From NCBI GenBank assembly GCA_000004695.1, contig CM000150.2:1024001-1088000 (forward strand): 64,000 nucleotides of DNA. Reading direction: 5' to 3'. Source of the DNA: Dictyostelium discoideum (lineage: Eukaryota). The notes under the pieces were generated by a model. That model had not been told where the DNA came from. It was given only the letters and a program-made list of their open reading frames with translations, and did not search any database. Both the position numbers and the translations under genes were made by a program. This document shows positions 32,562 to 43,306 of the stretch, in pieces; position 1 is the first letter of the stretch; every line of letters begins with the position of its first letter.

Positions 32562-35500
32562 TTAATCGACATCATCATAAGATGTATCGACATCTTTAAT
32601 TGATTTTGATTCTTCACCGTCGGAAGAGGTTGAGGATTCTTCATTATTTTCATTATTTTCTTGGATATCTTTTAATTCTGAAATTTCCTCATTTTCTTTT
32701 TCAATGGTTTGATTTTGTTTTTCCAAATTTTCATCCTCTTCTTTTTCTTCAGTTTTATTAACATTTTCTTCTTCTTTTTCTACTTTGTTCTCTTGATTTT
32801 GTTGTTCTTCTTGAGTTGAGTTCATTAAATTTGGTTTTACTAAATTTTCAATCTCTGTAAAATTCTTTTCCATTACTTCTTCTTTTTTATCAGATTCAGA
32901 TTCGATTGATTTTTTGATTTCTTGTTTATTGGAATCGAGTTGGATTGATTGATCATTATCATTTTCAGAGATAGTTTCTGTGGTATTTTCTTGAACAACA
33001 ATTGATGAGGTTGTATTATTATCATCATTATTATCAATGTTTTCTTTAGTTTGTTCCTCAGATAATTTTTCTTCAACTTTACAAGGAATAAAGTCTGGTT
33101 TAACTAGTTCTTCAATCTTTGAAAATTTATCCTCCATTTCATTTTCTCTTTTATCAGACTCAGATTCAATAGATTGTTGTTGTTGTTTAATTCTTTTCTC
33201 TTCTTCTTTTTCTTCTTCTTTATTTTCTTCTTTATTTTCTTCTTTATTTTCTTCTTTATTTTCTTCTTTATTTTCTTCGACTTTTATTTCACTTTGATTA
33301 TTTGTGTCTTCAGTGATAACTTTTTCATCTTCACTATCTTCTTTATTTTCTTCTATTTTATCGGTTTTATCTTCAACAATATCAACTTTTTCTTCTTTAG
33401 TGGTAGATTCAGAAGTTGGTTTTGATGGTGATGGTGATGATGATGGTTGGTCTTTATTTTCATTATTTGATGAGGATGATTTTGATAAATCACCAAATGT
33501 TTTAATAGTTGCAGTTGAGCCGAAAATTGGTGCTGGTGATGATGATGAGAATTGAGAGGTAGTTGAACCTCCAAATACTGGTGTTGGAGAAGTTGAGGTT
33601 GGATTGATTGTTAATGGATTAACTTGAGATTGTCCAAATGATGGAATTGTTGTTGAACCGAATGAGCTTCCAAATGCACTTCCAAATGGAGACGATGATG
33701 AATTACTAGAAACTGGTCCAAATGCTGAAATACCACCACCACTTGGTTGAGAACTAAATGATCCAAAGATTGATGAAGCTTGAATAGTTGGTGTTGGTAA
33801 TGAAAATGATGGTGGTGCAAATGATGATGGTGCAAACAATGGCTTTTGGGGAGTAAGTGTTGATGCAGTTGTAGTACTAGTTGTAGTAGTAGAAGTAGTA
33901 GTTGACGATGAATCTTTTTCGATTGTTTCATCATCATCATCATCATCACCATCATCTTTTTCATATTCGATCTCTTCCTCTACTTTAACAGTTTGGTCAA
34001 AGATTGGTAAACCACTTAATGACATACATCTAACTGGATCCATTGACAATAATGAAAGATTTGGTTCTTCTTGTTCTTTTTCTTTTTCTTCTTCTTCATC
34101 TTGGATTTCTTTACTAGCTTTTTCATTTTCTTTGGTTTCTTGGTCAATGTTGTTGTCACTGTTGCCATTATCTTCTTTGGTTTCTTGATCTTTTTCATCT
34201 TTATTGGTTGAAAAAAAGTTTGGTTTTATAGTTTCTTCAATTCTTGAAAATTCTTTTTCCATTTCATCTTCTTTTTTATCAGATTCAGATTCAATTGATT
34301 GTTTAGTTTCTTCTTTTTCTTTTTCTTGGTCTGATTCAACAGTTTCTTCTTCTTTCTTTTCATCTTCATTTTTCTTTTCATTTTCATCTTTCTTTTCATT
34401 ATCAATATGTTTTTCTGGTTCTGTTTCATTCTCTTTTTCATCTTCTTTTTTATCAGTTTCAATTGGTTGTTTAGTTTCTTCTAAAGTTTCTTCTTTTTCT
34501 TTTTCTTTGTCTGATTGAACAATTTCTTCTAATGTTTCTTCTTTTTCATCTTCTTTTTTATCAGATTCAATTGATTGTTTAGTTTCTTCTAATGTTTCTT
34601 CTTTTTCTTTTTCATTGTCTGATTCTATTTCATTCTCATTTTCATCTTTTTCATCTTTTAACTCATCACCCTTTTCTTCCTCATCTTCTTTGGTTGAAAA
34701 AAAGTTTGGTTTTATAGTTTCTTCAATTCTTGAAAATACTTTTTCCATTTCATCTTCTTTTTTATCAGATTCAGATTCAATTGATTGTTTGATTTCTTCT
34801 AAAGTTTCTTCTTTTTCCTTTTCTTTGTCTGATTGAACAATTTCTTCTAATTTTTCTTCTTTTTCATCTTCTTTTTTATCAGATTCAATTGATTGTTTGG
34901 TTTCTTCTAAAGTTTCTTCTTTTTCCTTTTCTTTGTCTGATTCAACAATTTCTTCTAACTTTTCTTCTTTTTCATCTTCTTTTTTATCAGATTCAATTGA
35001 TTGTTTAGTTTCTTCCAAAGTTTCTTCTTTTTCTTTTTCTTTGTCTGATTGAACAATTTCTTCTAATTTTTCTTCTTTTTTCTCTTCTTTTTTATCAGAT
35101 TCAATTGATTGTTTAGTTTCTTCTAATGTTTCTTCTTTTTCTTTTTCTTTGTCTGATTCGACAGTTTCTTCTTTCTTTTCATTTTCATCTTTCTTTTCAT
35201 TTTCATCTTTTAATTCATCTTTTTCATCTTTTAACTCATCTTTTTCTTGGTTTTTATCCTCAACACTTTCTTTTTCTTTGTTAATAGATTCAAAAGTTGG
35301 ATTTGATGGTGATGGTGATGGTTTTGAAGGTGATGATGAAGTTTGGTCTTTATTTTCATTATTTGATAAGGATGGTTTCGATAAATCGCCAAATGTTTTA
35401 ATAGTTGCAGTTGAACCAAAAATTGGTGCTGGTGATGATGATGAGAATTGAGAAGTAGTTGAACCTCCAAATACGGCTGTTGGAGAAGTTGAGGTTGGAT

Positions 35501-41500: not shown

Positions 41501-43306
41501 CAATCTTATAACAAGTTAAAGGATGAAGATGATCACCATTCTTTAATATACCATTTAACAACTCTGATAAGGTTGTAATTGAAAATATCTCTGTTGAATT
41601 AATTTTTGATGATGGTTTTAAATTTGAATAATAAATCATTGAATTCCAAATTTTCCATGGTAATGAGTTTCTTAAAAATGGTACATTCAATGTTGAATCT
41701 AAATAAACTTCTAAACTTGATAATTGATAACTTTGTTGTTGTTGTTGTTGTTGTTGTTGTTTTTGTTGTTGTTGATAATCTTGCTGATAATCGGTTTCAA
41801 ATATTAAATTAATACAATAAACTATAATATGTAATAAAGTAATATGTGAAGAAGAGGAAGTAGTAGTAGTAGTAGTTGATGATGATGATTTTGAAGAAAG
41901 TTGTTGTAATTCAAAATTAATTCTATTAATAAATTTATTAAAAATTTTATCTAACCAACAAATTAAAGTTGTATAACTTGAAGTTTTATTGATATGCCAT
42001 AAACTAAAACTAATAAAACGTTGAAACTCTAATGGATTATTTAAAAGATATTGGAAATCATTCTTTTCAATTGATTCAATGAAAAGTGTATCCAATTGAT
42101 CAGTATCATTTGGTGATGAAACTGAATTAAACTTTGAAACTAAATAATCCAAATATTTATACATACCACTATCACCAATATTGAGATTCATATTGATATT
42201 GTTATTTAATGATGCATAGAAATTAAGTTTTAAATCAATTTCATTACCATCACCAATGATTCTATTAATTGAATAAAATAATTGTCTTGATACTTCAGAT
42301 GATAATTTAACTATTGGTTCAAGCATATTTGATGATGACGATTTGGTGATATCCTTTTGTAAAGATTTTAAGTAACTTTTGAAAGGTGGATTTTGTCTAT
42401 TCTTTATATTACTAATTGAAGTGGTGATATTACTAATATTTGAATATTCATAATCAATTAAAATACCTTTATAAAAGAAATATCTTTCATTAAATTCTTC
42501 TAATGATGGTGATAATGTAATTGGCTCTTTATAAAGTGATACTAATTCTCTAATTTTCTTTACTTGTTTTTTAAATTCTTTTAATTGTCTTGTTAATTTT
42601 TGATTAAAATTATTATTACCATAATAATCACCAATATCATCAATATCATCAATACTACCACTGCTATTACTACTAACCAAATTATTATGAATTGTTGCTC
42701 TAATAATATAATCTAAAATTTCAGTTTTTAATGTAATTAAATTTAAATAACTCATTGAATCATTTAATAACATTGTATTTGCTTGAATTTCTTCAACACT
42801 TTCTTTAATTGCTTTAATTGCTACATTATCAATTTGTTTGATTATAAAATTTAAATATTTTAAATCTCTTTGATATTTAATTTTACTATCTTTAATTGAT
42901 TTAAAGAATCTAATAATAATAATAATAATAATAATAATAATAATAATAATAATAATAATAATAATAATAATAATAATAATAATAATAATAATAATAATAA
43001 TAATAATAATAATAATAATAATAATAATAATAATAATAATAATAACTTGGTTAATATATATATATATATATATATATATAAATATTTAAGGAAAGGAAAG
43101 AAAGATAAAACTTACTCATAATATTTTTTATTTATTGATAAAAGATTAATATTTTTTAATAAGAAATTTAAGTTATCTGGATATGATTTGATAGCAGATT
43201 GTAATGATTGTTCTGCAAGATCGTATTGTTTTGTTATTGTTTGAAAATCAATGGTAATCTCTTTTAATTCTTTTTGACTCTCTTTTAATACTCCAGATTG
43301 TTTCAA
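32562..43306 (-). CDS. Giant Nup153-like FG nucleoporin with six RanBP2-type zinc fingers. The main exon 32562..42773 encodes 3403 aa. The 5' end extends upstream through at least one intron (exon about 43306+..43116, intron about 43115..42910 containing (AAT)n).
   Basis: Six copies of GKLIWKCLCCETENSEKEKSCSVCMVP (W-x-C-x2-C-x3-N-x6-C-x2-C, the RanBP2 zinc-finger signature) are each followed by FG repeats (LFGG, NIFGNN, LFGSG, PPLFGNK). Further FG/FxFG/SxFG blocks, PPSFAP repeats and long acidic E/K repeats are present. The frame is open upstream of the M at 42773 (..IKESVEEIQANTMLL..) back to acceptor attattag at about 42910. The upstream ORF 43112..43306 has a TTG start and is open further upstream. 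It ends ...KKYY-GA|GTAAGT and is phase-compatible. Confidence 0.6.
34190..35290. repeat. Tandem array of about 115-190-bp units encoding acidic E/K-rich repeats (EEKLEEIVQSDKEKEKEETLEETKQSIESDKKEDEK) in the nucleoporin.
   Basis: The motif tcagattcaattgattgtttagtttcttc recurs at about 34270, 34565, 34760, 34875, 34990 and 35105. Confidence 0.75.
35690..35830. repeat. 15-nt tandem repeat (gcaaatgatggagga) encoding (PPSFA/PSSFA)n.
   Basis: Direct observation. It is in frame on the minus strand as SFAPPSFAPSSFAP. Confidence 0.8.
35960..38420. repeat. Tandem array of six coding cassettes of about 414-465 bp each (a RanBP2 zinc finger plus FG repeats), with one short 192-bp unit, inside the nucleoporin gene.
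   Basis: The 31-mer cacaacataaacatttccaaattaatttacc recurs at about 36361, 36775, 37204, 37669 and 38101, with a variant at about 38293. Flanking sequence is near-identical over hundreds of bp. Confidence 0.85.
42911..43080. repeat. (AAT)~45 microsatellite followed by (TA)~13, inside the predicted 5' intron of the nucleoporin gene.
   Basis: Direct observation. It lies between the candidate donor at about 43115 and the acceptor at about 42910. Confidence 0.85.

Follow-up and report, generated by a model that had tools for sequence, protein, structure and literature searches.

What kind of nuclear pore protein is encoded by the giant minus-strand gene with six zinc-finger cassettes that lies in a 64,000-nucleotide (nt) stretch of Dictyostelium discoideum DNA (contig CM000150.2, positions 1,024,001 to 1,088,000), and how did its cassettes arise? 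An earlier note on this stretch (the window, to which all coordinates below refer) had proposed a Nup153-like nucleoporin of the nuclear basket. We find that the best explanation of the locus as a whole, to which we give a probability of about 80%, is that it encodes a known giant zinc-finger nucleoporin with phenylalanine-glycine (FG) repeats, the amoeba homologue of Nup358/RanBP2, with a cassette array that grew within the lineage.

Identity of the gene

The composition of the window (∼20% G+C, with poly-N and poly-Q coding tracts and short GT..AG introns) is typical of Dictyostelium. The single minus-strand open reading frame (ORF) of more than 10 kb described in the earlier note is present (42773..32562; 3403 amino acids, aa), but it represents only the last exon of a three-exon gene, which occupies 32562–43586 on the minus strand. 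Exon 1 (43546–43586, 41 nt) starts with the ATG at 43586, exon 2 (43116–43427, 312 nt) encodes aa 14–118, with codons 14 and 118 split at the splice junctions, and exon 3 (32562–42909) comprises 10,348 nt including the stop codon; the introns are GT..AG and the spliced product has 3566 aa. The upper boundary formerly placed at 43306 falls within exon 2, the true start being 43586. This splice model is verified because the spliced product matches PDB chain 9hcj_00 (3566 aa) across both junctions, residues 1–782 being 100% identical, and the 3403-aa ORF is matched over its whole length by residues 164–3566 of the same chain (7280 bits). One cassette finger, compared with PDB sequences, also matched this chain, which is named ‘RanBP2-type zinc finger’, in six stretches whose positions agree with ours. 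An exact look-up of the 3403-aa ORF found no entry, as expected because the annotated product includes the two upstream exons.

PDB entry 9HCJ (release 2024-12-25) bears the title ‘D. discoideum nuclear pore complex’, and Supplement Table 2 of the corresponding study lists NUP358 as UniProt C7FZW3, ‘RanBP2-type zinc finger’ (Hoffmann et al., bioRxiv 10.1101/2024.01.17.575985). Because its product matches 9HCJ chain 00 and C7FZW3, the gene is known, annotated and structurally placed. We conclude from this agreement that the locus is the already known gene for the D. discoideum nucleoporin C7FZW3 (9HCJ chain 00), published as NUP358. With the identification, a wrong homology call (Nup153, nuclear basket) gives way to that of the literature (Nup358, cytoplasmic ring); a Nup358 in an amoeba is of interest, yet it has already been reported and current views are not overturned.

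Homology of the N-terminal domain and the zinc fingers

With the two upstream exons counted, the structured N-terminal region, previously put at about 570 aa, extends over ∼780 aa (domain aa 1–782, of which the exon-3 part, aa 119–782, lies at 40917–42908 on the minus strand). It is predicted to be helical throughout by two low-confidence AlphaFold2 models, and Pfam gives a faint tetratricopeptide repeat (TPR) match at aa 80–98, in exon 2. The domain is supported by the AlphaFold2 helices, by homology to an Acytostelium protein, by hhalign and by the published model. When 1.84 billion representative proteins were scanned in full with HMMER, one N-terminal homologue was returned, the 2727-aa hypothetical protein XP_012748312.1 of Acytostelium subglobosum (28% identity in the N-terminal domain, E 2.6e-28), which is the orthologue. 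Apart from this Acytostelium protein, the large protein collections searched returned no dictyostelid orthologue, and the D. discoideum protein was itself absent from the results. Word-indexed searches with the N-terminal domain, with its low-complexity-masked form and with the two-sequence alignment gave nothing, probably owing to crowding of the 8000-candidate list by poly-N/Q words or to missing dictyostelid entries.

To relate this domain to animal proteins, a two-sequence dictyostelid profile was compared by hhalign with residues 1–760 of human RanBP2, the human sequence having been checked against 7r5j_00. A single local match was obtained, between profile columns 393–517 and human Nup358 residues 378–508 (score 30.6, P 0.0074), and it is co-linear: the matched segments occupy similar positions in domains that are themselves of similar length. 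The maximum control scores were 24.3 for residue shuffles (n=78), 25.9 for 10-residue block shuffles (n=100), 28.4 for 25-residue block shuffles (n=100) and 24.8 for unrelated proteins of the window (n=18), and the reversed sequence (n=1) scored 20.1; the score of 30.6 was thus reached by none of the 296 shuffled or unrelated controls, nor by the reversed sequence. We regard this match as weak but real support for a Nup358 relationship; nothing comparable emerged for Nup153. Nup358 has been treated as metazoan-specific (Bley et al., bioRxiv 10.1101/2021.10.26.465790), and neither Nup153 nor Nup358 was found in Amoebozoa in an earlier survey (Neumann et al. 2010, PMC2951903). The small, independent profile signal between the dictyostelid N-terminal domain and human Nup358 therefore bears on whether Nup358 is metazoan-specific. 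In the published model of the D. discoideum pore, two copies per spoke of Nup358 aa 1–780 (from AlphaFold) were fitted into otherwise unassigned cytoplasmic-ring density, where the ∼780-aa helical domain sits on the Y-complex and anchors the protein to the pore (bioRxiv 10.1101/2024.01.17.575985).

The zinc fingers are the second link to Nup358. The consensus for RanBP2-type fingers is W-x-C-x(2,4)-C-x3-N-x6-C-x2-C, with four zinc-binding cysteines (PMC7154859), and the narrower pattern W-x-C-x2-C-x3-N-x6-C-x2-C named in the earlier note has exactly six matches in the product, at aa 1653, 1717, 1861, 2016, 2159 and 2297. On the minus strand, finger 1 (WKCLCCENENSEKEKSCSVC) lies at 38247–38306, finger 2 at 38055–38114, finger 3 at 37623–37682, finger 4 at 37158–37217, finger 5 at 36729–36788 and finger 6 at 36315–36374. 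Four fingers each from D. discoideum and Acytostelium were combined into a finger profile, which was searched against solved PDB chains. It matched human RanBP2 (E 1.5e-8), Xenopus Nup358 (E 1.3e-7), the NZF finger of RNF31 (E 1.6e-5) and the fingers of Nup153 (E 0.004–0.03; a single D. discoideum finger against Nup153 gave E 0.38), and it also listed the fingers of FUS and ZRANB2. We conclude from the pattern and profile matches that the six fingers belong to the RanBP2-type family as genuine, though divergent, members, and the match to RanBP2 upholds the former description of a giant FG nucleoporin with fingers of this type. Two other readings of the fingers were considered and, as specific predictions, rejected on inspection of the alignments: the aromatic and Arg residues of RNA-binding (ZRANB2/FUS-type) fingers are absent, as is the T-F dipeptide of ubiquitin-binding (NZF) fingers.

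Several observations weigh against a Nup358 assignment. The HH-suite probability of the hhalign match is 5%. AlphaFold2 models of aa 119–800, predicted alone or with the Acytostelium sequence, reached a confidence score (pLDDT) of 41 and 38, respectively, too poor for fold comparison; a PDB fold search with such a model found only 9hcj_00 (by sequence, TM score 0.24), the next entries being generic helical repeats at E>0.2, and we do not count this search as evidence against Nup358. Searches of all PDB sequences with phmmer and with a two-sequence hidden Markov model (HMM) recovered no vertebrate nucleoporin or Nup358 N-terminal domain. In the published work, the Foldseek comparison with Xenopus Nup358 (7FIK) gave a probability of 0.28 with 7.1% identity, TM scores of 0.47/0.59 and a root-mean-square deviation of 6.3 Å, the weakest fold support among the nucleoporins in that study's table (bioRxiv 10.1101/2024.01.17.575985). 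The Pfam model PF00641 (Zn_ribbon_RanBP) assigns no score to any individual finger of D. discoideum, even with the cut-off at E≤10, and the fingers carry E-T (E-N in finger 1) opposite the L-V of Nup153 and Nup358 when aligned to the Nup153 finger 3gj3_B. Finally, no Ran_BP1, SUMO-E3 or cyclophilin domain was detected by Pfam, so that most of the animal Nup358 architecture is missing.

An alternative is a zinc-finger FG nucleoporin peculiar to the dictyostelids and without an orthologous relationship to Nup358 or Nup153, in which a generic alpha-solenoid would serve as anchor and the fingers would have been gained independently. The low Foldseek and HH-suite probabilities are in keeping with such a protein, as are the absence of any sequence-level match to a vertebrate nucleoporin N-terminal domain in the PDB searches, the single N-terminal homologue among 1.84 billion proteins, and the literature in which Nup358 is metazoan-specific or was not found in Amoebozoa. 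We nevertheless consider it unlikely, given that the co-linear hhalign match exceeds every one of the controls, that Nup358 is matched in the size of the domain, in its predicted all-helical make-up and in the hint of a TPR at the N-terminus, and that the protein fits cytoplasmic-ring density of the kind that animal Nup358 occupies. One further candidate likeness was set aside: where Nup358 has an oligomerisation element ∼50 residues after the N-terminal domain, a charged, possibly helical segment lies at aa ∼880–910, but it is not conserved with Acytostelium.

Could the protein be a Nup153-type nucleoporin after all, with an N-terminal region that targets the nuclear ring or basket and with fingers and C-terminal FG repeats acting on the nuclear side? 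The order of N-terminal region, fingers and FG repeats, together with the lack of Ran-binding, E3 and cyclophilin domains, resembles Nup153 more than animal Nup358, which adds to the points against our preferred assignment. The finger profile also matches Nup153, the fold comparison published in favour of Nup358 is weak, and Neumann et al. (2010, PMC2951903) found no separate Nup153 in Amoebozoa. However, an HMM search for the Nup153 N-terminal family (PF08604), as the earlier note had proposed, found no Pfam match at E≤1 in the 807-aa N-terminal region or in the whole ORF. The earlier note had said that its proposal would fall if the N-terminal region lacked similarity to the Nup153/Nup1 families and the protein localised away from the pores, and the first half of that is what the search returned. 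The ∼780-aa domain is predicted to be all-helical and its only remote similarity is the co-linear one to human Nup358 (residues 378–508); the published model fits it into cytoplasmic-ring rather than nuclear-ring density (bioRxiv 10.1101/2024.01.17.575985); and among finger-fragment chains Nup358 scores slightly above Nup153 with the finger profile (24.8 versus 19.9 bits). A basket nucleoporin of the Nup153 type is therefore improbable, and we retain the assignment to Nup358.

The E-T dipeptide has a bearing on what the fingers may bind. In the Nup153–Ran structures (Higa 2007; Schrader 2008; Partridge & Schwartz 2009), the L-V dipeptide reportedly lies in a hydrophobic interface and contacts the switch regions of Ran. 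The finger–Ran interface has likewise been described as hydrophobic (Bley et al., bioRxiv 10.1101/2021.10.26.465790). The Acytostelium fingers have E or D at the first residue of the L-V position, and the hydrophobic L-V after the second cysteine that marks the Ran-binding finger subclass is, judging from the alignments, replaced in the D. discoideum fingers. No Pfam match at E≤1 to Ran_BP1, a domain present four times in human Nup358, was found in the 3403-aa ORF, and Pfam finds no cyclophilin or other globular domain; the C-terminal ∼900 aa consist of FG and acidic repeats. It is tempting to suppose that the dictyostelid Nup358 is a Ran-independent cytoplasmic filament protein whose finger array docks another ligand; we hold this as a tentative and rather doubtful proposal. 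If it were true, Ran-GTP hydrolysis in the amoeba would be organised without a pore-bound Ran platform. More generally, fingers that lack the canonical Ran-contact residues, in a protein with no Ran-binding domain found, suggest that amoeba cytoplasmic filaments may handle Ran differently. There is also a practical consequence for annotation. PF00641 recognises three of the four Acytostelium fingers (best E 1.1e-7), whereas HMM-based annotation alone would miss all six fingers of D. discoideum (36315–38306, aa 1653–2316).

Structure and origin of the cassette array

The six fingers are embedded in an array of cassettes at 35925–38318 on the minus strand (aa 1649–2446). Unit 1 has 64 aa and consists of a finger and a single AFG, with no spacer; units 2–6 have 138–155 aa and comprise a finger, 5–6 FG motifs, a K/E-rich spacer and an S/T/P linker. 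The former description, FG repeats and acidic spacers after each finger, holds for the FG motifs of units 2–6, but not for unit 1, and the spacers are of mixed K/E composition rather than purely acidic. The start-to-start spacings of the cassettes are 192, 432, 465, 429 and 414 nt, and Tandem Repeats Finder reports a period of 414 nt with 4.8 copies (79% matches, 10% indels).

Codon-aligned nucleotide identity between cassettes is 84–95% over whole units and 92–100% over the finger core (the first 45 codons, that is, the finger and its linker). Over 135 nt, the length of this core, no difference separates cassettes 5 and 6 (100% identity), and a 300-nt stretch across a cassette boundary is 97% identical to the one 414 nt away (36205–36504 versus 36619–36918). 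‘Near-identical’, the term used in the earlier note, is apt for the finger cores and for cassette pairs 4/5 and 2/3, and is too strong for whole cassettes. The proportion of synonymous differences (pS) between cassettes ranges from 0 to 0.32. Codon usage in D. discoideum is strongly biased, and the fraction of identical residues encoded by the same codon was therefore compared with that expected from the usage of the gene outside the array. The observed fractions were 0.78–0.93, against 0.60–0.66 expected, and all seven cassette pairs tested exceeded the maximum of 5000 simulations. This excess of shared codons places the similarity of the cassettes at the DNA level above what protein constraint and codon bias would give, bearing out the earlier suggestion of an identity beyond protein-level constraint.

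One explanation for a similarity of this kind is that the cassette number is an assembly artefact, produced by collapse or expansion of the repeat. Repeats of 414–465 nt with stretches of 97–100% identity can mislead short-read or Sanger assemblies, and the PDB/UniProt sequence comes from the same reference assembly and hence offers no independent confirmation. Against this, every cassette pair differs by 5–16% in addition to indels, and the tails are distinct, so that the units can be uniquely placed; moreover, the reading frame is intact across the whole array. We regard an artefact as very improbable.

Expansion of repeats in disordered Dictyostelium proteins is common. Comparison with the orthologue indicates that the six cassettes are the result of expansion in the D. 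discoideum lineage, of homogenisation, or of both, because the Acytostelium protein has just four fingers and these are mutually divergent (in the finger alignment each shares only 25–34% identity with finger 1 of D. discoideum); the ancestor probably had about four divergent fingers. The four fingers of Nup153, against which six had been called an expanded array, are the wrong yardstick, since human Nup358 has eight (Bley et al., bioRxiv 10.1101/2021.10.26.465790).

The most informative unit is cassette 5. For the first 120 aligned nt it is indistinguishable from cassette 6, after which the two diverge strongly, whereas over the last ∼200 nt it differs from cassette 4 at just 0–2 positions per 30 nt. 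Cassette 5 thus joins the head of cassette 6 to the tail of cassette 4, a mosaic pattern that one unequal crossover between misaligned cassettes would produce and that points to unequal crossing-over as the latest event. The alternative is that the six-cassette array is old and has been kept similar by ongoing gene conversion (concerted evolution), with no recent gain of copies. The finger cores vary less than the FG tails do, which is what short conversion tracts would leave behind, and the excess of shared codons is seen in all 15 cassette pairs and not among neighbours alone. However, copy number differs between the two species (four in Acytostelium, six in D. discoideum), two distinct tail types persist (cassettes 2/3/6 and cassettes 4/5), and cassette 5 has one clean switch point in the 414-nt register, for which a single unequal crossover suffices. 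We consider an old array maintained by conversion somewhat unlikely. A last point to be counted against our overall reading is that unequal crossing-over and gene conversion are inseparable without closer relatives. The shared codons, the mosaic cassette 5 and the four fingers of Acytostelium thus support the recent amplification or gene conversion that had been proposed from the sequence, in a form that was overstated given 84–95% identity over whole units. In the history that we favour, unequal crossing-over enlarged the array by tandem duplication within the D. discoideum lineage; a last, recent crossover would have made cassette 5 a hybrid of a cassette 6 head and a cassette 4 tail, and gene conversion may have contributed to some extent as well.

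Two plus-strand ORFs with TTG starts run antisense to the array, at 35989–37311 (440 aa) and 37351–38457 (368 aa). We found no support for either as a gene, and they most likely arise from the composition of the repeats.

The rest of the protein, its proposed working and its relatives

The N-terminal domain is followed by FG block 1 (aa ∼955–1315; 39318–40400, all features of this paragraph being on the minus strand), an S/T/P-rich run of LFG/IFG repeats with internal repeats of 54 and 87 nt, by a charged spacer with acidic-basic-acidic runs (aa ∼1316–1480; 38823–39317) and by FG block 2 (aa ∼1481–1625; 38388–38822), made of SVFGQ/SIFGQ repeats with a 63-nt period. After the cassettes come a (P/S)SFAP pentapeptide array of 10 copies with a 15-nt period (35685–35834), FG block 3 (aa ∼2535–2630; 35373–35660), ∼500 aa of acidic 36-aa (108-nt) repeats within a 486-nt higher-order repeat (34195–35332), FG block 4 (aa ∼3140–3260; 33483–33845), which is a paralogue of block 3 with 90% nucleotide identity, and an acidic C-terminal tail (32562–33482). 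The 73 FG dipeptides lie in blocks with near-zero charge and 40–56% S+T, and belong mainly to LFG (30), SxFG (29), IFG (13), VFG (10) and AFG (9) motifs. The FG blocks described in the earlier note are thus present, but GLFG (2) and FxFG (1), the types that it had named for the repeats after the fingers, are rare. The product has the disordered, low-charge, S/T/N-rich blocks with many FG motifs by which FG nucleoporins are recognised, and the Pfam family Nucleoporin_FG (PF13634) scores 27.1 bits (E 8e-6), just below its gathering score of 32.2.

Several further features of the gene were observed. A 260-nt segment of an FG block is duplicated within the gene (33417–33676 versus 35313–35572, 90% identity, 1896 nt apart), with acidic repeats after each copy, and the disordered C-terminal half of the protein seems to have been assembled from a duplicated super-unit. 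The low-complexity acidic C-terminal region contains four copies of a motif of ∼26 aa, ESESDK(K/R)E..ME..F..IE..(I/V)KP.(F/L), two of them in the C-terminal tail (aa 2829, 2991, 3366 and 3454; 139-nt DNA copies at 32800–32938, 33064–33202, 34189–34327 and 34675–34813). It could be a short linear binding motif, and no obvious counterpart was seen in the Acytostelium orthologue. Intron 2 (42910–43115, minus strand, GT..AG) is mostly a perfect (TAA)45 microsatellite (42911–43045, 135 nt, 100% matches), which reads (TTA)n on the coding strand.

Elsewhere in the window, Pfam identifies an Alg9-like mannosyltransferase (GT22; ORF 8061–10001), a protein with a C-terminal Rad60-SLD/SUMO-like domain (12314–14005), a Ctf4/Mcl1 homologue (53141–55084) and an OTU-family protease (56926–58242), the coordinates being paired with these names in the order listed. 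All four are ordinary eukaryotic housekeeping proteins. Six other large ORFs of the window have no Pfam match at E≤1e-5.

How might such a protein work? With the helical domain as anchor, the remaining ∼2,800 residues would, if animal Nup358 is a guide, make up a disordered filament on the cytoplasmic side, in which the FG blocks would bind transport receptors and the charged spacers would keep the filament extended. The finger array may act as a multivalent docking site with six near-identical sites. Analogy with animal Nup358 and Nup153 suggests Ran-GDP as their ligand, an assignment that is uncertain because L-V is replaced by E-T and no Ran-binding domain was detected.

Comparison with vertebrate Nup358 reveals both likenesses and differences. 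Each is a giant cytoplasmic-face nucleoporin with an N-terminal domain of ∼750–780 aa, helical by prediction in the amoeba, anchored to the outer ring, with C4 fingers of the RanBP2 type clustered in tandem, among which several are near-identical, and with FG motifs scattered along a disordered chain (bioRxiv 10.1101/2021.10.26.465790). The Nup358 domain consists, in order, of TPR, HEAT, wedge and HEAT parts. To these are added the weak co-linear profile similarity of the N-terminal domains and the match of the finger profile (E 1.5e-8). In contrast to the vertebrate protein, that of D. discoideum has no Ran-binding domains, IR1-M-IR2 SUMO-E3 region or cyclophilin domain detectable by Pfam, six fingers rather than eight, E-T rather than L-V in these fingers, ∼100 aa with 5–6 FG motifs after each finger, two copies per spoke rather than five, and long acidic repeat arrays without a vertebrate counterpart. 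The likeness to vertebrate Nup153 consists in the order of N-terminal region, RanBP2-type finger cluster and FG repeats, and in the similarity of the fingers. It does not extend to the N-terminal region, which has no match to the Nup153 family and is predicted to form a large helical domain, to the number of fingers (six versus four) or to the cytoplasmic placement of the D. discoideum protein (bioRxiv 10.1101/2024.01.17.575985).

The orthologue, Acytostelium XP_012748312.1, has the same layout of N-terminal domain, fingers of the RanBP2 type, acidic runs and FG or SxF repeats rich in S/T, and differs in its four mutually divergent fingers, its FN/LF-type linkers and its lack of near-identical cassettes. 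The published D. discoideum NUP358 (C7FZW3, 9HCJ chain 00) is the same protein, with 3566 aa, fingers at the same positions and no sequence difference. The accessible part of the published work models aa 1–780 only and describes neither the structure and evolution of the cassettes nor the peculiarities of the fingers (bioRxiv 10.1101/2024.01.17.575985). Relative to that part, the present analysis adds the N-terminal profile signal shared with human Nup358, a probable expansion of the cassettes by unequal crossing-over, and the lack of the canonical Ran-contact residues in the fingers together with that of any Ran-binding domain detected by Pfam.

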